NCBI GenBank assembly: GCA_029260905.1
Contig: JAJDCH010000011.1
Span: 512-64,511, forward strand
DNA from: Candidatus Levyibacteriota bacterium
GTDB taxonomy: Bacteria > Patescibacteriota > Microgenomatia > Levybacterales > UBA12049
Reading direction: 5' to 3'
Length of the DNA: 64,000 nt
The position numbers and the translations under genes were made by a program. The stretch's first letter is position 1, and every line of letters begins with the position of its first letter. Below the pieces are notes generated by a model. It had not been told where the DNA came from. It searched no databases and saw only the letters and a list, made by a program, of their open reading frames with translations. Positions 35,414 through 44,373 of this stretch are shown here, one piece after another.

Positions 35414-35725
35414 ATGAAAGATGTTAGCATGTGTCAGTTGGATAAAACTTTAAGCGTAATTGGAGGAAAATGGAAAATGGTCATTCTCTGGCATTTATCC
35501 CACAGTGTGTTGAGGTTTTCTGAGCTTGAGAAAAAAATTCCAGGAATTACCCAAAAAATGCTTTCTCAATCCCTTCGCGAACTTGAAAAAAATAAATTAA
35601 TTTCAAGAAAGGCATATCCTGTCATCCCTCCAAAAGTAGAATACGCGATTACCGCCCATGGCGTATCGCTTGGAGAAGTACTCAAAAAGCTGAATAAATG
35701 GAGTCAGACTCATCTTAAAAAATAA
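35414..35725 (+). CDS. HxlR-family winged-helix transcriptional regulator
   Basis: CQLDKTLSVIGGKWKMVILWHL...EYAIT...G is the HxlR signature. Confidence 0.8.
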   Translation: MKDVSMCQLDKTLSVIGGKWKMVILWHLSHSVLRFSELEKKIPGITQKMLSQSLRELEKNKLISRKAYPVIPPKVEYAITAHGVSLGEVLKKLNKWSQTHLKK

Positions 35726-36388: not shown

Positions 36389-36567
36389 TTAATATATTTT
36401 AACACATTGTAAGAACCTATTTTGTATTAGTTTTGTAAGCATATCCCTTGTTTGTGCTGCTCTCCGTAGTTGACATGTTTAAGAACCGAGAAATAGAGTT
36501 TGGCTTTACTTTACAAAATATACAGACTGTTTTTGAAGCTCTAAATATAACCCTTGGAAATGACTTA

Positions 36568-37485
36568 TCAGTTTAGCTCAAAGAAATCCTCGTCCAATTC
36601 TTTGACTTCAAAATTAGACTTAATTTGAACACCTACATTAAATTTAATCATTAAATCGACTAGCTTATTTCCATCGATAAGGATGAGAGTATGATTTCGA
36701 TCGCTAGTAGCTTTGGCAACTGCTGCAGGATCGAACATAGATGTAGTAACAAATATTCCTTTCCGAACATCTCCACTCATTGCTCCTATAAAATTTCTAA
36801 TTTCTGGTTCTCGTACTTTATTCCCATCTTTATATCTTTTAGCTTGAATGTATATTTTTTCTATTCCTAATTGATCTTGATTGATAATACCATCAATACC
36901 CCCATCCCCTGATTTTGGTGTAGATTCAAAATCTCCATAGCCCATTTTTTGGAATAACAGTAAAACAATTTTTTGGAAATAATAAGGATCTACTGAATAC
37001 AGCTTTTCCTGAAGCTCGGCCTCAAGTTTTTCTAATAATTCTTGTACACCCGTTTCAATTAAGTCTTGAGGTGTGTACTTGCTTGTCAGTGGATCACTTT
37101 GATTACTCTTCCTTTTTCTAGGTTCATGAGCTATATAGTCTGGGTCTTGTTTTAAATCATCTAAGGATAGTTCCGTTACTCCTGATTCTAAAAACCGTTT
37201 ACCTTTATCACTAATTTTGACTAAACCTCTGCTTGGTTGATCTACATATTTTCCTACTTTTAGATATGTCTTACCCCAAGCCACCCTGTCGTGGAAAAGG
37301 CTACCACCTGTTGCTTTTGTCTGAGCCAATTCATCTGGTGTCAAATTAAAATACTTAGCGTCTAGAAGCAAAGTCGGTAGATCTGAGGTATTAACTATTC
37401 GATCATCGGCCAGCACTTTTAGTATAGGTAAAAAGGTTTCGTAAAACTTTGGTAATGCCATAAAACATCTAATTTCTATTTGCAT
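36568..37485 (-). CDS. mrr: Mrr-type restriction endonuclease (Mrr_N winged helix plus Mrr_cat)
   Basis: N-terminal Mrr_N-like region, then the catalytic core (GIDGII, YIQAKRYKDGNKV, GIFVTTSMF). Confidence 0.75.
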   Translation of the reverse strand: MQIEIRCFMALPKFYETFLPILKVLADDRIVNTSDLPTLLLDAKYFNLTPDELAQTKATGGSLFHDRVAWGKTYLKVGKYVDQPSRGLVKISDKGKRFLESGVTELSLDDLKQDPDYIAHEPRKRKSNQSDPLTSKYTPQDLIETGVQELLEKLEAELQEKLYSVDPYYFQKIVLLLFQKMGYGDFESTPKSGDGGIDGIINQDQLGIEKIYIQAKRYKDGNKVREPEIRNFIGAMSGDVRKGIFVTTSMFDPAAVAKATSDRNHTLILIDGNKLVDLMIKFNVGVQIKSNFEVKELDEDFFELN

Positions 37486-37546
37486 TATACATGAATGTTA
37501 AACAATGTTAAAATAGGCTAGAAATAGTTTAAAAATGTAATGAAAT

Positions 37547-38308
37547 ATGCAAAATAATAAAGATGATCTGGGGCTGGTAATATCTGAACTAAATCAATAT
37601 CTACATGTGGGATATACCCTAAAACTAACTTATTTAAAGAAACATGATGTAGACGGACAGAAAGAAGCATTCGATGTTGACGAGTTAAAGAAAGAATATA
37701 ACGAAAAGATAAATATTTGGTTTAAAGAAATAGCAGACCACTTACAGAAGCTAGACTTTCAATACCTCTTTCATTTTGTTCAACCAAAAGACGATGCTAT
37801 GTCTTACTCTCATCCTCTTGGTAATCTTACTCACGCTTTAGAAAAACACCTCTTTGCTTTAGAAGATGTTATTGTTCGTCTTGAGGAAAGAAAGAATTTA
37901 GCAGTAAGACAAGAGATAGCTGATAAAGAATACCAAGTGGACACTCTTTATAAGATTACTTACAGTGAACATTTAAGAGAAATAAAGCTCAACAACATTG
38001 TATTAGCTAACCTCCAATCTGACTCTAAGAATGTTAATTTTTTTGAGTATGTATTCTCAAATCCCAATATACCCTTAGCAGTAAGCGACATTGAGGAAGC
38101 TACAGCAATGCCCTTAGCTTCTAACATTCAGGATATTCTGCGTGATTTAGGCTTCAAGGGAAACATAAGAAAAGTATTCTTCCCTATAGCTACGAAAGCA
38201 AAAGTAATGTTCATGAACCCAATTTCAAAGCAGTATGCTATTAAAAATGATCTCCCGATAATTAAATTGCTAAAAGACAACGAGATAGAACGAGAAGCAA
38301 CGAACTAG
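37547..38308 (+). CDS. Hypothetical protein, no recognisable domain (first gene of the plus-strand operon of the element)
   Basis: 253 aa. Divergent from mrr across a 61-nt intergenic region. Coiled-coil-rich. Confidence 0.4.
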   Translation: MQNNKDDLGLVISELNQYLHVGYTLKLTYLKKHDVDGQKEAFDVDELKKEYNEKINIWFKEIADHLQKLDFQYLFHFVQPKDDAMSYSHPLGNLTHALEKHLFALEDVIVRLEERKNLAVRQEIADKEYQVDTLYKITYSEHLREIKLNNIVLANLQSDSKNVNFFEYVFSNPNIPLAVSDIEEATAMPLASNIQDILRDLGFKGNIRKVFFPIATKAKVMFMNPISKQYAIKNDLPIIKLLKDNEIEREATN

Positions 38309-38472
38309 AACGGGAAGTTGCCACCCACAACCGTAAAAGCCATTTCTCCCTCCATATTTCTCCTATTCTGTTTGCGTGGATATAAATACGCAAGCTATTC
38401 AAAATAATCTGAATGAGCCACCCTCTAATGATGAGGAATTGGATAGGATTTCTCAATTTTTTTTACTTCTAA

Positions 38473-38802
38473 TTGAAATTGATAAAAAGCAAAAACAGAA
38501 AGGTAAAACAGATGAAAATAAGTGAAATACAAATTATTCCTATCAAACCTCAAAACGGATTAGTTGCCTTTGTCAGCTTCGTATTGGAAGAAAATCTGTA
38601 TCTAGGTTCAATCGGTATTCTCACAAAACCCGAAGGAGGATATAGGCTCGTTTATCCCACTAAAAAAGTAGGAGTGCGAAGCATGAATATATTCCATCCA
38701 ATAAATAAAGATTTCTCTCAATCTATAGAAAAGGAGGTCATCAGTAAATTTGAAGATGTAATGAAAAAATATGATAGATACGATAAAGCTGACATTAGAT
38801 AA
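38473..38802 (+). CDS. SpoVG-like nucleic-acid-binding protein
   Basis: IQIIPIKPQNGLVAFVSFVLEENLYLGSIGILTKPEGGYRLVYPTKK...MNIFHPINKDFSQSIEKEVISKF parallels SpoVG. The true start may be the internal M at about 38515. Confidence 0.5.
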   Translation: MKLIKSKNRKVKQMKISEIQIIPIKPQNGLVAFVSFVLEENLYLGSIGILTKPEGGYRLVYPTKKVGVRSMNIFHPINKDFSQSIEKEVISKFEDVMKKYDRYDKADIR

Positions 38803-39910
38803 AAGTATGGTTTCTATATTGAACAAAGACTTATTCCAGAAAGAAACTCAAAATGCCTCAAGGGGCTACTTTACTCTTGTGCAAAATCCAACAAAAGCTG
38901 AATTAAGGAACGGAATTTATAAGCCAAGATTAACCCTAACCAAAAGATTTAATACTTCGGGTAGATCTGAGTTGACCTTGTCTGTGGAACTCTCACTGCC
39001 AAAATTACTTTATGGAAACAACTTTGATGAGGTAAATGATGATGACTTTCCGATTGTCATAGACAAACTTAGTAATGTACTAAAAACAATGGGTGTAAGG
39101 GTGTTTAAGGAAATTCTCACATCAGCTCCTGTATCAGCTGTGCACTATTCAAAAAATATTCCCCTTACCGATGGCTCTACTCCTCATTACTTAATAAAGA
39201 AGATCAAAGAAGCAAACATTTCCTTAGCTCTTGATGTAAATCAAACTGATTACCGCAATGACGGACACAGTTATAAGTGGCACAGCAACTCTTACGAGGT
39301 GGCTTTTTATGACAAGATTAAAGATCTCGAAATGGCTGTCAAAAGCGATAAAAGATCTATAGAAAAAGATAATCGTTTACAACTCCACCTTTTCAACCAA
39401 ATAACTAAAAAACAAAAAACAGAAGTCTTACGGATGGAAGTAAGACTCAATAATAGACAAAAATTGAAGCAATTATTTAAGACTCTTAATATTGATAGTG
39501 AGCTCATTTTTAAGAGCTTGTTCAGTAAAGATATTTCTCAGTGCATACTCCTGCACTACTTAAGCGAAATAGAAAAACAGCGACCAAAGATACTAGACTA
39601 TTCCCCTTCCAACCCAACTTCTCTTCTAGCTGAAATTATTATCAGTAATCCCAATCTTGGAGCACAGAAAGTATTGCAGCTATTTGGATTAAAACAAGCT
39701 CTTGATACTATTCCTCCTCGTGAATTAAGAGTTATGCTTGGTAAATCTAGCAATAGAAGTTGGTACAGGTTAATCTCACAAACCAAAAACGTTGCACTCC
39801 CCAGTGTTAATAGCCCTTTTGAAGCTATAAGAAAAAACTTGATGGACTTTGAACTAGTAAAACTAGTTGATTTACAAGTCAAAATGTTAAATAATGATAA
39901 ATATAACTAA
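38771..39910 (+). CDS. Putative rolling-circle replication initiator (Rep_trans-like)
   Basis: YEVAFYDKIKDL and EVLRMEVRLNNRQKLK resemble the Rep_trans blocks FIRIYNK and LWRVEIELKR. The N-terminal IDTIKLTLD resembles the IDWLSFTF start. The start overlaps the SpoVG-like gene by 32 nt. Confidence 0.4.
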   Translation: MIDTIKLTLDKSMVSILNKDLFQKETQNASRGYFTLVQNPTKAELRNGIYKPRLTLTKRFNTSGRSELTLSVELSLPKLLYGNNFDEVNDDDFPIVIDKLSNVLKTMGVRVFKEILTSAPVSAVHYSKNIPLTDGSTPHYLIKKIKEANISLALDVNQTDYRNDGHSYKWHSNSYEVAFYDKIKDLEMAVKSDKRSIEKDNRLQLHLFNQITKKQKTEVLRMEVRLNNRQKLKQLFKTLNIDSELIFKSLFSKDISQCILLHYLSEIEKQRPKILDYSPSNPTSLLAEIIISNPNLGAQKVLQLFGLKQALDTIPPRELRVMLGKSSNRSWYRLISQTKNVALPSVNSPFEAIRKNLMDFELVKLVDLQVKMLNNDKYN

Positions 39911-40085
39911 TATGCCAGATGAGCAATATCACTCCATAGAAGAAGTCGCAAAGTTATTAAATGTGGCTTACTTAACGGTTTATCGTTGGGTAAAAAGTGG
40001 AAAGCTTCACGCTATTAAAGCTGGAAAGCAGTATCGAATAAATAAGGATGATCTAAATTCCTTTACTAGGATTAACAAAAAATAA
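39894..40085 (+). CDS. Excisionase/MerR-type HTH DNA-binding protein (Xis/AlpA-like)
   Basis: IEEVAKLLNVAYLTVYRWVKSGKLHAIKAGKQYRI. Confidence 0.7.
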   Translation: MINITNMPDEQYHSIEEVAKLLNVAYLTVYRWVKSGKLHAIKAGKQYRINKDDLNSFTRINKK

Positions 40086-40086
40086 C

Positions 40087-41907
40087 ATGGCAAACGAAAG
40101 AAAAACAGAAAACATCGTTAGAGAACATTTTAATCGATACAAAGAGCAATTAATTATTGAGGAGCAGTCTTCCGATGTTCCTAAGATAGATAAGTTGCTG
40201 CGACTTGCTTCAAAAAAAGGGAATGGTAAAGGATTCCCAGAGTTTATTATCAGATTTAAGAACAACCCCGATCTAATAATCGTAATAGAATGTAAAGCTG
40301 ACTTCCTAAAACACGAAAGCGAAAATAGAGATAGATATAGTGAATACGCTGTAGATGGTGTCTTACTTTATGCATCATATTTAGCAAAAGAATTTGACGT
40401 TTTAGCAATAGCGGTAAGCGGTGAATCCTTAAACCAATTAAAAGTGTCCCATTTCCTTCAACTGAAAAGTGATAACAAACCAACTCAAAAATTTGGAGTA
40501 CAACTACTTCCTGCAAATGATTACCTTGAGGGATATATCAAGAGTCCTGAGAAATTTCGTCAGGATTACGAAAAGTTACTCACCTTTTCTAAGGAACTAA
40601 ACGAGAAATTGCATGGCTATAAAATTTTAGAAAGTGATAGAAGCCTATTAATTAGCTGTATATTAATTGCACTTGAAAATACTGCATTTATTAAAACTTA
40701 CAAGGATTACTCAAGGGCTGAGGACTTAGCAAGATATCTAGTTGATACGGTAGAGATGGAGTTCAAAAACTCCAATATTCAAGATAAAAAACTCTCAATC
40801 GTTAAGGCTCGGTTTGAATTTATTAAAACTGATACTTCTCTTTCAACAGTTGATGGTGTTCTAAAAGAAATAATTACAGATATTAATGACAACATCAATT
40901 CATTTGTTAGGACTCATAGATACTTCGACGTATTGGGTCAGCTTTACGTTGAGTTTCTAAGATATGCAAACAGTGATAAAGGTCTAGGTATCGTACTTAC
41001 CCCTCCTCATATAACCGAATTTATGGCTGAACTCGCAGAGGTAAATAGAAGCAGCGTTGTATATGACAACTGTACAGGCACTGGAGGATTTCTTGTAAGT
41101 GCAATGAATTTAATGATTAAAGACGCCAAAGACGATTTAGACTTAATTAAAAACATAAAACAACATCAACTGATTGGCGTTGAGTATCAAGCTCACATTT
41201 TTGCTCTTGCTTGTTCAAATATGTTTATTCATCAAGACGGTAAGTCAAGCATACTTAATGGAAGTTGTTTTGACAAAACAATAATTGAACAAGTTAAGGC
41301 TTATAAACCAACAGTTGGTTTATTAAACCCTCCTTACAAAGCAGATAAGAAGAATGACGTTGAAGAACTAGAGTTCATAGTTAATAACTTGGAATGTTTA
41401 GAACAAGGTGGTCGATGTGTTGCAATCGTGCCTATGTCATCGGCATTAGCACAGAAAGGGAAAATTTTACAACTAAAGAAAAAGCTATTGGATAATCATA
41501 CTTTAGAAGCAGTACTCTCCATGCCAGACGAGCTTTTCTTTAACTCGAATGTGGGTGTTATCTCTTGTATTATGGTCTTTACAGCAAAAAGACCTCACCC
41601 ATCTAATAAGAAAACTTTTTTCGGTTATTTCAAAGATGACGGGTTTGAAAAGAGAAAAATGAAGGGAAGAATTGATATTAAAGGTAAATGGAAGTCAATT
41701 AAAGATAGTTGGATTGAAGCATATGTGAATAGGCAAGATATTGCAGGTTCAAGCGTCAATCAAGCAGTTAGAGCCGAAGATGAATGGTGTGCAGAAGCCT
41801 ATATGGAAACTGATTACACTGTTTTAACTAAGAAAGATTTTATTAAATCGGTAAAGGAATTTGTTTATTTTAAAGAGCTATTTACTTATGAAACTAAAGA
41901 AAATTAA
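40087..41907 (+). CDS. BcgI-like type IIB restriction-modification A subunit (N-terminal PD-ExK nuclease fused to a gamma-class N6-adenine methyltransferase)
   Basis: PEFIIRFKNNPDLIIVIECK (PD...ExK), methyltransferase motif I GTGGFLVSA, and motif IV LLNPPYK. Size and paired S-subunit match BcgI. Confidence 0.65.
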   Translation: MANERKTENIVREHFNRYKEQLIIEEQSSDVPKIDKLLRLASKKGNGKGFPEFIIRFKNNPDLIIVIECKADFLKHESENRDRYSEYAVDGVLLYASYLAKEFDVLAIAVSGESLNQLKVSHFLQLKSDNKPTQKFGVQLLPANDYLEGYIKSPEKFRQDYEKLLTFSKELNEKLHGYKILESDRSLLISCILIALENTAFIKTYKDYSRAEDLARYLVDTVEMEFKNSNIQDKKLSIVKARFEFIKTDTSLSTVDGVLKEIITDINDNINSFVRTHRYFDVLGQLYVEFLRYANSDKGLGIVLTPPHITEFMAELAEVNRSSVVYDNCTGTGGFLVSAMNLMIKDAKDDLDLIKNIKQHQLIGVEYQAHIFALACSNMFIHQDGKSSILNGSCFDKTIIEQVKAYKPTVGLLNPPYKADKKNDVEELEFIVNNLECLEQGGRCVAIVPMSSALAQKGKILQLKKKLLDNHTLEAVLSMPDELFFNSNVGVISCIMVFTAKRPHPSNKKTFFGYFKDDGFEKRKMKGRIDIKGKWKSIKDSWIEAYVNRQDIAGSSVNQAVRAEDEWCAEAYMETDYTVLTKKDFIKSVKEFVYFKELFTYETKEN

Positions 41908-42850
41908 CGAGTTATTTGATATTCAATATGGCAATAGTCTTGAGCTAGTAAATCTAACTGAGTGTGAGGCTGAAGATTTACACTCAGTAAACTTTGTGTC
42001 AAGAACTGAAAAGAATAACGGTGTTTCTGGAATAGTTGAGCAGCTACCTGACCTTGAACCTTTCGAGGCTGGACTCATTACAGTTGCTGGGAGTGGAAAC
42101 TCGGTTTTATCATCATTTATCCAAACTAAGCCATTCTATACAGGATTTCATGTATTTATTCTTCGTCCTCTATCTCCTATGTCTATGATAGATAAACTTT
42201 TCTACTGCTATACCATCAGATTAAATCAATATAAATATAGTTTTGGTCGTCAAGCGAATAAGACATTAAAAGATTTGTTAATTCCAAGCGAAGTACCCGA
42301 TGATTGGAAGAAGCTGGACATTAATAGTTTGAATAATCTCAACAACCAGAGCTTTGATCACAATGATATTAACCTAAATTCTTCTAACTGGGAGTATTTT
42401 AATTTAACGGACTTATTTGAAATTTCAGCTTCAAGAGATGAGTTAATAAATGATCTGAACCTTGGAGGCACAACGCCTTATATAACTTCATCAGACAAAA
42501 TGAATGGAATAACTTCAACAGTTGAAGACGAACCAACAAATCCCGCTGGAACGATAACTGCTAATCGAGGCGGCTCCGTAGGATATTTTTATTACCAACC
42601 CTTCCCTTATAAATCAACTCCAGTTGACGTAAGAATATTAACACCTAAGTTTCAAATAAATGTATATATTGGTTTATTTCTTAAAACCATACTTCAGTTA
42701 GAAAAATACAGATTTAATTACAGTAGGAAGATGGGTAGTGATCGACTAGCTGAATTTAGAATAAAATTACCAACCGAAAACGGTCAACCAAGCTGGTCAT
42801 TTATGGAACAATATATTAAGAGCTTGCCCTATTCAAGTAATTTAAACTAA
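41888..42850 (+). CDS. Restriction-modification specificity subunit (HsdS/BcgIB-like, two TRD-like halves)
   Basis: Start is placed at the ATG at 41888, overlapping the A-subunit stop by 20 nt. Two repeated TRD-like halves. Confidence 0.5.
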   Translation: MKLKKINELFDIQYGNSLELVNLTECEAEDLHSVNFVSRTEKNNGVSGIVEQLPDLEPFEAGLITVAGSGNSVLSSFIQTKPFYTGFHVFILRPLSPMSMIDKLFYCYTIRLNQYKYSFGRQANKTLKDLLIPSEVPDDWKKLDINSLNNLNNQSFDHNDINLNSSNWEYFNLTDLFEISASRDELINDLNLGGTTPYITSSDKMNGITSTVEDEPTNPAGTITANRGGSVGYFYYQPFPYKSTPVDVRILTPKFQINVYIGLFLKTILQLEKYRFNYSRKMGSDRLAEFRIKLPTENGQPSWSFMEQYIKSLPYSSNLN

Positions 42851-42852
42851 AT

Positions 42853-44334
42853 ATGAAAGCTATCGTAATCGCACGAGTTAGTACAGAAGAACAAAAAGAG
42901 GCTGGTAACTCCCTACCCGCACAAATTGCTAGGCAGAAGAAGTACTTTCAGAGTAAAGGATACCTGATAGAAAAAGAGTTTAGCTTTGATGAAAGTGCCT
43001 ACAAGAATAAAAGAGATGATTTTGACAATATATTGGACTATGTCCTTTCCCAGAAGGAAAAAATCGCAGTAGGATTTGATAAGGTTGATAGGCTATCCCG
43101 TAACATCTTTGATAAGCGTGTTTCTTTTCTTTACGAAAAGGCATTAAGAGATGAGATTGAAATACATTTTGTATCTGATGGTCAGGTTATAACAAGCCAT
43201 TTATCTGCAGTTGAAAAGTTTAATTTTAGTATAAGTCTTGGTCTAGCAAAGTATTATTCTGACGCCATAAGCGATAATGTTAAGCGTGCTCAAGAACAAA
43301 TGCTACGAAATGGGATCTATCCTAGCCGTCCCTCTTTTGGATATAAACGAGCTCCAATAACTAAAGATAAAACAGAAATTGTAGTTGATGAATATGCTTC
43401 TGTAATAGTAAGAAAAGCATATGAGCTTTATGCGACAGGTAGTTTTTCATTGGATTTGTTACGAAAAAAACTCAAAGAAGACTACGGAGTTAATTGGTCG
43501 CATGGCTGGACTGATAAAATTCTAAAAGATCACTTCTACTACGGTGTAATGACTTGGAATAAAAAGCAGTATAACCATAGGTATACTCCTATTATCACAA
43601 AAGCATTATTTGACCAAGTACAACAAATTAAGGCGGGTTTTAATAAGAAACGCTTCAAATATGCTGGATTGCCTTATGTTTTTCGTGGCTTATTACGCTG
43701 TGGGCATTGTGGGCTGTCTATTACACCAGAAAAGCAGAAAGGACATGTCTACTACCATTGTACGCAGTATAACGGCAAACACGGAGCAGAATGGCTACGA
43801 GAAGAAGAAATTACTAATCAGATAGGAAGGGTATTTAAGAATCTACAGTTGCCAGAAGATACATTAAGGAAAGTCGTTGAAACATTAAACTCTACTCATC
43901 AAAACAAAATGGACTTTCAAAATAAGCAGTTTGATAAATTAACCAAAGAAAGGACTGTAACAACCAATATGATTGATAATCTTTATCTTGATAAGTTAAA
44001 GGGGCGTATTACTGATGATGAGTATGACAGGTTTTATCAGTCATTCCGTGAACAATTAAGTGATATAGATACTCGGTTGGCATTACTTCAAGAAGCAGAA
44101 GATAACTACTACATTACGGCTAAATACATATTGGATTTGGCAAATCGGGCGTATGATCTGTTTGTAAGTTCTGAACTTGAAGAAAAACGGCAGTTAATCA
44201 AACTTGTACTTAAGAACCTTAAATTAGAGGGAAAAACTGTTCAATTTGAGGCTGTTAAACCCTTTGATACACTACTATCGTATCAAGATTATCTACCTAT
44301 GCTCCCCCGCGAGGATTCGAACCTCGGACCTTGA
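42853..44334 (+). CDS. Large serine recombinase (resolvase catalytic domain, recombinase domain, zinc ribbon)
   Basis: AIVIARVSTEEQKEAGNSLPAQ contains the catalytic Ser motif. Recombinase domain and CGHCG...YYHC zinc ribbon follow. The last 33 nt overlap the tRNA-Asn 3' half. Confidence 0.85.
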   Translation: MKAIVIARVSTEEQKEAGNSLPAQIARQKKYFQSKGYLIEKEFSFDESAYKNKRDDFDNILDYVLSQKEKIAVGFDKVDRLSRNIFDKRVSFLYEKALRDEIEIHFVSDGQVITSHLSAVEKFNFSISLGLAKYYSDAISDNVKRAQEQMLRNGIYPSRPSFGYKRAPITKDKTEIVVDEYASVIVRKAYELYATGSFSLDLLRKKLKEDYGVNWSHGWTDKILKDHFYYGVMTWNKKQYNHRYTPIITKALFDQVQQIKAGFNKKRFKYAGLPYVFRGLLRCGHCGLSITPEKQKGHVYYHCTQYNGKHGAEWLREEEITNQIGRVFKNLQLPEDTLRKVVETLNSTHQNKMDFQNKQFDKLTKERTVTTNMIDNLYLDKLKGRITDDEYDRFYQSFREQLSDIDTRLALLQEAEDNYYITAKYILDLANRAYDLFVSSELEEKRQLIKLVLKNLKLEGKTVQFEAVKPFDTLLSYQDYLPMLPREDSNLGP

Positions 44335-44373
44335 AGTTAACAGCTTCCTGCTCTACCGCTGAGCTACAGGGGA
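44302..44373 (-). tRNA. tRNA-Asn (anticodon GUU)
   Basis: Folded by hand. Acceptor stem UCCCCUG/CGGGGGA, D-arm GCUC-AGCGGUA-GAGC, anticodon loop CUGUUAA, variable loop AGGUC, T-arm CGAGG-UUCGAAU-CCUCG, discriminator G, no encoded CCA. Confidence 0.8.

Follow-up and report, generated by a model that had tools for sequence, protein, structure and literature searches.

A small integrative element occupies positions 36459 to 44307 (7.84 kb) of the window, the 64,000-nucleotide (nt) stretch of a Candidatus Levyibacteriota genome analyzed here (assembly GCA_029260905.1, contig JAJDCH010000011.1), and three genes within it encode a 253-residue protein (ORF253), a SpoVG-like protein and a 379-residue protein (ORF379). 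We conclude, with a probability of roughly 0.7, that these three are conserved regulation and replication genes of the element and not cargo. Judged by its relatives and its predicted fold, ORF379 is a rolling-circle initiator-type nickase of the gpII type, a link that is transitive and structural rather than direct. Taken singly, the parts of the element are familiar (a nickase of the gpII/Rep_trans type, a SpoVG and a winged-helix fold, a large serine recombinase and restriction-modification (RM) cargo), and the family appears undescribed yet widespread in ultra-small bacteria of the Candidate Phyla Radiation (CPR, or Patescibacteria) and in Dependentiae. We found no description of the family in the literature, whether of the combination of genes, the hosts or the coupling of SpoVG to a replication initiator (Rep), and the named homologues of ORF379 and ORF253 are all labeled 'hypothetical protein'.

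The element has sharp ends. In an alignment of 18 loci, similarity sets in abruptly at position 36459 and the sequence upstream is unrelated; the left core reads GCTCTCC in the window versus GCTCCCC in the other aligned loci, and the same junction is present in most of 15 metagenome contigs. Because the boundary falls at this position, the element includes the gene for an Mrr-type restriction endonuclease. No long direct repeat of the tRNA 3′ half turned up in a search for one; the actual repeat is a 7-nt core that is seen by comparing loci, and an Rfam scan returned the tRNA only. The stretch combines a terminal recombinase gene, a short core at both ends and an intact tRNA-Asn target, as integrative elements do.

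A scan of one genome per species matched 203 loci, 79 of which were fetched and examined (numbered with the prefix L). They belong to Levybacteria, Woesebacteria, Pacebacteria, Roizmanbacteria, WWE3 and Peribacteria within the CPR, and to Dependentiae (Babeliales). The module has a fixed order, namely regulator, small open reading frame (ORF), SpoVG, Rep, excisionase-like helix-turn-helix (HTH) gene, RM cargo, large serine recombinase and tRNA, with a gap of variable content between the HTH_17 gene and the recombinase gene. Searches with the window proteins detected Rep in all 79 loci, the serine recombinase in 65, the SpoVG-like protein in 39 and the HTH_17 protein in 31. The sequence-only reading of this DNA had placed the three genes inside a mobile element, which is borne out by the attachment-site (att) boundaries, the linkage to a tRNA gene and the recurrence of the module. 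In the Dependentiae/Babeliales loci L027–L079, the same pair of Rep and recombinase often occurs in several copies per genome, the recombinases are often frameshifted, and no SpoVG or HTH_17 gene was detected adjoining Rep.

The ORF379 family comprises 1667 clusters at 90% identity, with top matches that are 60–83% identical to ORF379 and labeled Levybacteria, Roizmanbacteria and Pacebacteria, and 1255 cluster representatives at 50% identity, all of them unnamed. An alignment of 114 diverse members (mean column identity 36%) has ten invariant residues (D3, T4, E87, K128, N129, G165, Y180, K182, R221 and E223), with D185 nearly so. The motif set of the Rep_trans family includes N′(D), YxKxxE with the catalytic tyrosine, and (W/L)xRxE, and has been noted as shared with M13 gpII (PMC5714925; PMC4797284). 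The invariant residues of ORF379 fit motifs N′(D), III and IV of this set, and motifs I and II find a loose fit only (D86/E87; T159-x-Y161...G165). Among the same 114 proteins, 16 match the Pfam family PF05144, Phage_CRI, which describes the N-terminal domain of G2P (E up to 1; best 5.8e-7), and two match Rep_trans (PF02486) weakly (E 0.026). A bridge is provided by P0306, a full-length homologue of ORF379 (33% identity, E 3e-71) that scores 28.3 bits against the PF05144 cut-off of 21.7 and covers profile positions 1–216 of 232; P0320, likewise a full-length homologue, scores 22.5 bits. In the comparison of the family profile with M13 gpII, 'fYDK' lies over 'AYLK' and 'RMEVR' over 'RFEAR', so that Y180 corresponds to Y197, which we take to be the gpII nucleophile.

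The AlphaFold2 (AF2) model of ORF379, built from an alignment of 26 homologues (predicted TM-score 0.79), consists of an α/β domain (residues 1–226) followed by a helical domain (residues 229–360). The five best Foldseek matches of this model in BFVD, a collection of predicted viral structures, have E-values of 7e-9 to 3e-5 and probabilities of 0.99–1.0, and include 'Replication-associated protein G2P [Inoviridae]'. Relatives and structure thus place ORF379 nearest to Phage_CRI (gpII/G2P), which is a sister of Rep_trans. An initial description of the protein as Rep_trans-like was right about a rolling-circle initiator-type nickase, as motifs, relatives and fold indicate, and needs correcting as to the closest family.

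ORF379 appears to resemble the filamentous-phage gpII/G2P proteins (PF05144, for example M13 gene II) in the predicted fold of the N-terminal domain, and shares with them an N-terminal MID-x-hydrophobic strand, an E-x-S-x-PK-x-L-x-G-x-N block, the Y-x-K motif and an R-x-E-x-R strand. Unlike gpII, it sits in a non-viral integrative element that lacks morphogenesis genes, is paired with a SpoVG-like gene, has a C-terminal helical domain unrelated in sequence, and has no evident internal restart of the gpX type. With the Rep_trans proteins (PF02486: pT181 RepC/RepD, CTXphi RstA, Tn916 Orf20, MOBT) it shares the same five-motif logic (an Asp in N′, YxKxx(E/D) and (L/V)xRxE); proteins of this kind are non-HUH nickases that use a tyrosine and a carboxylate-bound metal, and some Rep_trans members act in integrated elements. 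The weak Pfam matches of ORF379 relatives and a Foldseek result devoid of solved Rep_trans structures set it apart from that family.

The SpoVG-like protein passes the Pfam SpoVG (PF04026) cut-off (40.6 bits versus 29.6) over profile positions 1–81 of 82, and its full length can be aligned with the solved SpoVG of Staphylococcus epidermidis (2i9x, residues 1–81, E 2.6e-4), including the HPIN motif, which upholds the initial assignment to this family. Because its score against the NCBIfam SpoVG equivalog NF009749 (33.3 bits) is far under the cut-off of 108, the protein is, by sequence, a diverged paralog and not the housekeeping orthologue. The start is most likely the ATG at 38512, yielding 96 residues, because the alignment to the solved SpoVG begins there and the orthologue in locus L081, the closest relative, is a 96-residue gene; the TTG at 38473 is less likely. 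In the window the 3′ end of the gene overlaps the start of ORF379 by 32 nt, and 36 CPR loci have the same overlap, the SpoVG-like gene beginning 244–355 nt upstream of Rep; the pairing, which the sequence-only reading had singled out, is therefore conserved and not accidental. Since the Dependentiae elements and the CPR elements L082 and L083 lack the gene and have a small ORF abutting Rep instead, the SpoVG-like protein is an accessory partner rather than part of the catalytic machinery. By analogy, it may tune Rep expression or origin use, a form of copy control. In plasmid pMV158, the gene for the small repressor CopG lies immediately upstream of the rolling-circle initiator gene repB and is co-transcribed with it. 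The element is similarly organized, with one or two small nucleic-acid-binding proteins encoded upstream of rep in one operon with a palindromic control region; in contrast, CopG is a ribbon-helix-helix protein, the folds here are unrelated to it, and a repressor role is hypothetical here. The SpoVG proteins of Firmicutes and Borrelia are site-specific DNA- and RNA-binding regulators, whereas the window protein is encoded on a mobile element and its gene is translationally overlapped with Rep.

ORF253 has no recognizable motif at the profile level, as initially noted: it has no significant match in Pfam, PHROGs or NCBIfam, and its profile (A2) found nothing among PDB sequences. Its AF2 model (pLDDT 87) comprises long helices forming a coiled coil (residues 2–132) followed by a small sheet and a winged helix (residues ~133–235). 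Foldseek places the C-terminal part next to the DNA-binding domains of GlnR, SaeR, OmpR, ToxR and PhoP in the PDB (probability 0.80–0.97, TM(target) 0.53–0.64). We found 51 homologues, all in the CPR, and the C-terminal domain (residues ~125–244) is common to longer proteins with different N-termini that are encoded at the corresponding position upstream of SpoVG in some 30 CPR loci. The protein is best read as a modular DNA-binding regulator of the element and not as a defense gene.

Between ORF253 and the SpoVG-like gene lie a conserved non-coding region and a small gene that the sequence-only reading had overlooked. The non-coding region is a candidate promoter, operator or origin: in many loci the stop codon of the ORF253-like gene is followed by a YACAAC(G)-type motif and iteron-like repeats, the repeats differing by subgroup. 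A sigma-70 scan found no convincing promoter for the operon. The small gene encodes 49 residues, its homologues carry the motif FFxLLIxID followed by a basic tail, and an in-frame 3-nt indel relative to the L081 copy supports its being coding. Its family of 26 proteins is encoded upstream of SpoVG in the CPR and directly upstream of Rep in Dependentiae, making it a more universal Rep partner than SpoVG. Compared with L081 (10954–11292), the window (38493–38512) lacks about 330 nt encoding a 112-residue gene between the small ORF and SpoVG; L084 also has this gene, and in the window the small ORF directly abuts SpoVG.

From 38376 to 44334 the genes form a chain in which each overlaps or abuts the next (with overlaps of 14 nt for small ORF/SpoVG, 32 nt for SpoVG/Rep, 17 nt for Rep/HTH, and so on); therefore, one promoter region 3′ of ORF253 would jointly drive the replication, excision, RM and recombinase genes. 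The earlier proposal that the three proteins are co-operonic holds for SpoVG and Rep, and indeed for the whole chain, but not for ORF253, which is set apart by the 67-nt conserved non-coding gap.

Several results weigh against the assignment of these genes to a regulation and replication core. ORF379 itself has no significant match in Pfam, PHROGs or NCBIfam; its model retrieves nothing from the PDB below E 0.05, including the solved Rep_trans structures (RepDE/RepSTK1), and the family profiles A1 and A3 find chance matches only among PDB sequences. Direct alignment of hidden Markov models (HMMs) between the family profile and M13 gpII is weak (E 0.025, in a one-sequence search), and a comparison of A3 with the single M13 gpII sequence by hhalign returns a meaningless 14-residue match. 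The winged-helix call for ORF253 rests on predicted structure with non-significant Foldseek E-values (0.26–0.9), and a Pfam scan of 37 homologues and 10 longer relatives detected no Trans_reg_C or other domain. A search for an origin or nick site identified candidate cis sites only. The hairpin over the small-ORF start has an ordinary folding energy (z −1.2), and RNAalifold found no consensus pairs in a start-codon-anchored alignment of 15 hairpin regions. Finally, no circular (attP) form is evident among the 15 metagenome contigs with the left-end block, all of which carry integrated or tandem junctions.

Alternative explanations concern single features as well as the element as a whole. The sequence-only reading had suggested that ORF253 might hide a defense or anti-defense function, and the protein, alone or with SpoVG and ORF379, could in principle constitute a new system; it does lie between Mrr on the left and RM genes on the right, as was stated, and has no Pfam, PHROGs, NCBIfam or PADLOC family. 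However, no PADLOC defense model (E up to 0.01) is matched by ORF253, the small ORF, the SpoVG-like protein or ORF379, and its model predicts a winged helix of the DNA-binding OmpR type with a coiled coil. The question of whether homologues recur beside RM or Mrr genes has a mixed answer: they do recur, but what they track is SpoVG–Rep, upstream of which genes of this family are fixed in about 30 elements, and the flanking cargo is Mrr, DUF3800, Bro-N or nothing. A defense role is extremely improbable, and we retain ORF253 as a predicted regulator. The hairpin had been proposed as a double-strand origin whose loop would hold the nick site for Rep. It is real and its position is conserved, at 38372–38393 and not at 38375–38400: L081 has the identical hairpin, in a stretch of roughly 37 nt that contains a single mismatch and whose flanks diverge, and perfect hairpins of at least 6 bp lie over the small-ORF start in 20 of 40 non-redundant loci versus 7.8 expected, with stems that differ among loci (TTGCGT, GACTTTGC, CTCGAC, TCGGTA, CTGGTT, GTGCTT and others). 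The nick sites of pT181-type origins are also presented on a stem-loop substrate (PMC4797284). On the other side, the hairpin always spans the small-ORF start codon, as would fit a translational hairpin or an operator where transcription begins; apparent T·G mismatches, noted by eye on the sense strand in the stems of L001, L012 and L022, would be U·G wobbles in RNA; and the loop differs by subgroup (GGATATAAAT in the window, AATGGAAAC elsewhere). With the ordinary folding energy and the lack of a consensus structure also counting against it, the origin proposal is possible but doubtful. We describe the hairpin as a conserved cis feature that, from its sequence and placement, could serve as an origin, as an operator where transcription starts, or as a translational hairpin.

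Two further alternatives bear on what kind of element this is. ORF379 might be mainly a conjugative or mobilization relaxase (MOBT-like, as in Tn916 and ICESt3) that nicks an origin of transfer (oriT) for export through an MPF_FATA-type type IV secretion system (T4SS), which most Patescibacteria possess. Conjugative-transposon relaxases do belong to the Rep_trans family (PMC4797284), and the high identity of ORF379 homologues across CPR classes implies frequent horizontal transfer, but no coupling protein or other transfer gene was found in the element, the nearest family is that of the phage gpII replication initiators, and the ORF379 family is equally common in Dependentiae; we consider a mainly conjugative role unlikely. 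A 2025 survey found monoderm-type T4SSs throughout Patescibacteria and almost no relaxases (PMC12102498), and the ORF379 family might supply the 'very different relaxase' missing from it, moving small tRNA-integrated elements via the orphan monoderm-type T4SS. We give this idea little credence; if true, it would explain why near-identical Rep and recombinase modules carry different RM systems across CPR classes. The element might also be a defective or satellite filamentous prophage with a gpII-type Rep and a tRNA-directed serine recombinase, similar to Ralstonia phiRSM: the best structural matches of ORF379 are Inoviridae G2P models, and phiRSM1 is the one phage cited with a serine recombinase that integrates at a tRNA 3′ end (PMC3218068). 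Yet every ORF between the att cores has an assignment, with no coat or assembly gene (pVIII-like, pI/Zot or pIV) among them, tblastn with ORF379 and P0306 against INPHARED phages gave no match, an IMG/VR scan gave no relative, and the variable slots hold RM systems. A prophage origin is thus very unlikely, and we reject identity with a filamentous prophage even though the Rep is of that type.

The closest counterparts of the integrative element are the integrative and conjugative elements of actinomycetes (AICEs; pSAM2 type) and the streptococcal integrative and mobilizable elements (IMEs), which replicate by rolling circle once excised, are likewise bounded by att sites at a tRNA 3′ end and carry a site-specific recombinase, an Xis-like HTH protein, a rolling-circle Rep and variable cargo. 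In contrast to these, its recombinase for a tRNA target is a large serine enzyme and not a tyrosine recombinase, a combination described as rare (PMC3218068), it lacks a Tra/FtsK transfer gene, its hosts are Patescibacteria and Dependentiae, and its cargo is almost always RM.

The data show the order of the genes and its conservation, the links by family and fold, and the ends of the element; excision, nicking, an origin and all regulatory roles we infer as follows. The recombinase would excise the element as a circle, probably with help from the 63-residue excisionase-like HTH protein, which is a probable recombination directionality factor or regulator. ORF379 would then nick one strand at an origin, probably within the conserved 38309–38400 region, using Tyr180 and a carboxylate-bound metal, and the nick would prime rolling-circle replication of the excised element. 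ORF253, as a presumed dimerizing winged-helix protein, would bind the repeats downstream of its own gene and set transcription of the operon. The SpoVG-like protein, made by translational coupling just before Rep, would serve as an accessory factor tuning Rep expression or origin use, and together with the small protein it may modulate the excision and replication steps. The selective payload would be the RM or other defense system carried in the two variable slots. The features of the element are listed in Table 1.

Table 1. Features of the integrative element in the window, with the basis of each assignment.
Feature	Position	Strand	Basis and remarks
attL core GCTCTCC, left boundary	36459..36465	+	repeats the tRNA-Asn 3′-end core GCTCCCC of attR
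Left-end block	36460..36576	+	blastn: 19 loci; encodes conserved 38-aa tail LSVVDMFKNREIEFGFTLQNIQTVFEALNITLGNDLSV (then stop) in the recombinase frame
Mrr-type type IV methyl-directed restriction endonuclease, left-slot cargo	36568..37485	-	Pfam Mrr_N and Mrr_cat; PADLOC mREase_IV E 2.3e-56
ORF253, 253 aa, predicted DNA-binding regulator	37547..38308	+	AF2, Foldseek, conserved position
Conserved non-coding control region, 67 nt	38309..38375	+	CACAACC (38326-38332), ATTTCTCC direct repeats; patches conserved versus L081
Hairpin/palindrome TTGCGT-GGATATAAAT-ACGCAA	38372..38393	+	covers the small-ORF start codon
Small conserved ORF, 49 aa, GTG start	38376..38525	+	motif ELDRISQFFLLLIEIDKK; 14-nt overlap with the SpoVG start
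SpoVG-like nucleic-acid-binding protein, 96 aa	38512..38802	+	Pfam SpoVG; overlaps Rep start
ORF379, 379 aa, gpII/G2P-like nickase (Phage_CRI/Rep_trans superfamily)	38771..39910	+	catalytic domain 1-226; candidate nucleophile Tyr180
HTH_17/excisionase-family protein, 63 aa	39894..40085	+	Pfam HTH_17 E 1.4e-14; TIGR01764 'excise' E 2.7e-16
Type IIG restriction enzyme-methyltransferase, cargo	40087..41907	+	PADLOC REase_MTase_IIG E 1.7e-162; Pfam N6_Mtase
RM specificity subunit, cargo	41861..42850	+	Pfam Methylase_S; PADLOC Specificity_II E 5.5e-38
Large serine recombinase	42853..44334	+	Pfam Resolvase, Recombinase, Zn_ribbon_recom; last 34 nt inside the tRNA gene
tRNA-Asn(GTT)	44301..44373	-	ARAGORN; Rfam tRNA 64.7 bits; 3′ end is the attR core GCTCCCC (44301-44307)

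The HTH_17 gene follows Rep in 31 loci regardless of cargo, and in most of the 65 loci with a match a recombinase homologue (E as low as 1e-290) is encoded downstream of Rep. In most of 50 loci scanned, the recombinase gene and a tRNA gene on the opposite strand overlap at their 3′ ends, the target being tRNA-Asn in the CPR and tRNA-Asp, -Arg, -Glu or -Gln in Dependentiae. Integration into tRNA genes by serine recombinases is described as rare, phiRSM1 being cited as the sole phage precedent and a group of Mycobacterium AICEs being reported in tRNA-Leu (PMC3218068). The integrated recombinase gene spans the att site and ends with 11 codons of the tRNA gene (...MLPREDSNLGP, then stop). The circularized form would read through the core into the left end, adding a tail of 38 residues (LSVVDMFKNREIEFGFTLQNIQTVF...; element-encoded ...VVDMFKNREIEFGF...) across a predicted attP junction ...CTACCTATGCTC/TCCGTAGTTGACATG... 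(the slash marking the joint). In a comparison of the window with loci L001–L025 and L081–L084, 18 loci conserve this tail at the protein level, and its frame matches in all seven loci with both cores located. Judging from these sequences, integration could swap the recombinase C-terminus and thereby serve to switch directionality.

A second, different large serine recombinase gene lies just left of the element in L081 (8088–9767), L012 (5817–7508), L017, L018, L006 and L093, and its frame continues across the same GCTCCCC core to the same left-end tail. The arrangement resembles tandem arrays in which two element families share one tRNA-Asn attachment core; the neighboring element in L081 carries BpuJI-like, Vsr and cytosine-methylase genes. 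An HxlR-family regulator is encoded just left of the element end in two genomes (window 35414–35725; L082 7869–8330) and may mark the ancestral surroundings of the tRNA-Asn target site. Within the left-end block, a promoter-like site, TTGACA-18-TAGAGT (10/12), occurs at 36470–36499; it points rightward, antisense to Mrr, and may be due to chance.

RM cargo on mobile elements is known in general (PMC2853133). In the close relative L100, ORF253 begins about 130 nt after the left-end block and Mrr is missing, which makes Mrr the cargo of a left slot. The RM cargo of the window consists of two genes, for a type IIG enzyme-methylase of 606 residues, whose N-terminus contains by eye a D...ECK motif typical of PD-(D/E)xK nucleases, and for a separate specificity subunit, and a similar system fills the slot of L084. 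The right slot holds EcoRV and a Dam-type methylase in L081, a methylase and an unknown gene in L082, an N6_Mtase and an S subunit in L084, and MmeI in L086; RM components also occur in nine of ten further right slots sampled.

CPR bacteria and Dependentiae are large, uncultured, host-dependent lineages whose mobile elements are nearly unknown, and a compact element with exact ends is now defined for them. For a family of more than 1,200 clusters at 50% identity, so far annotated as 'hypothetical' and nothing more, the analysis supplies a function, and it offers three testable subjects: a candidate nickase that could serve either replication or an orphan CPR secretion system, a SpoVG-fold protein that may have been recruited as a partner of the Rep gene, and a serine recombinase whose C-terminus would change with the integration state. 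The element appears to be a main vehicle of restriction-modification systems in the CPR and Dependentiae.

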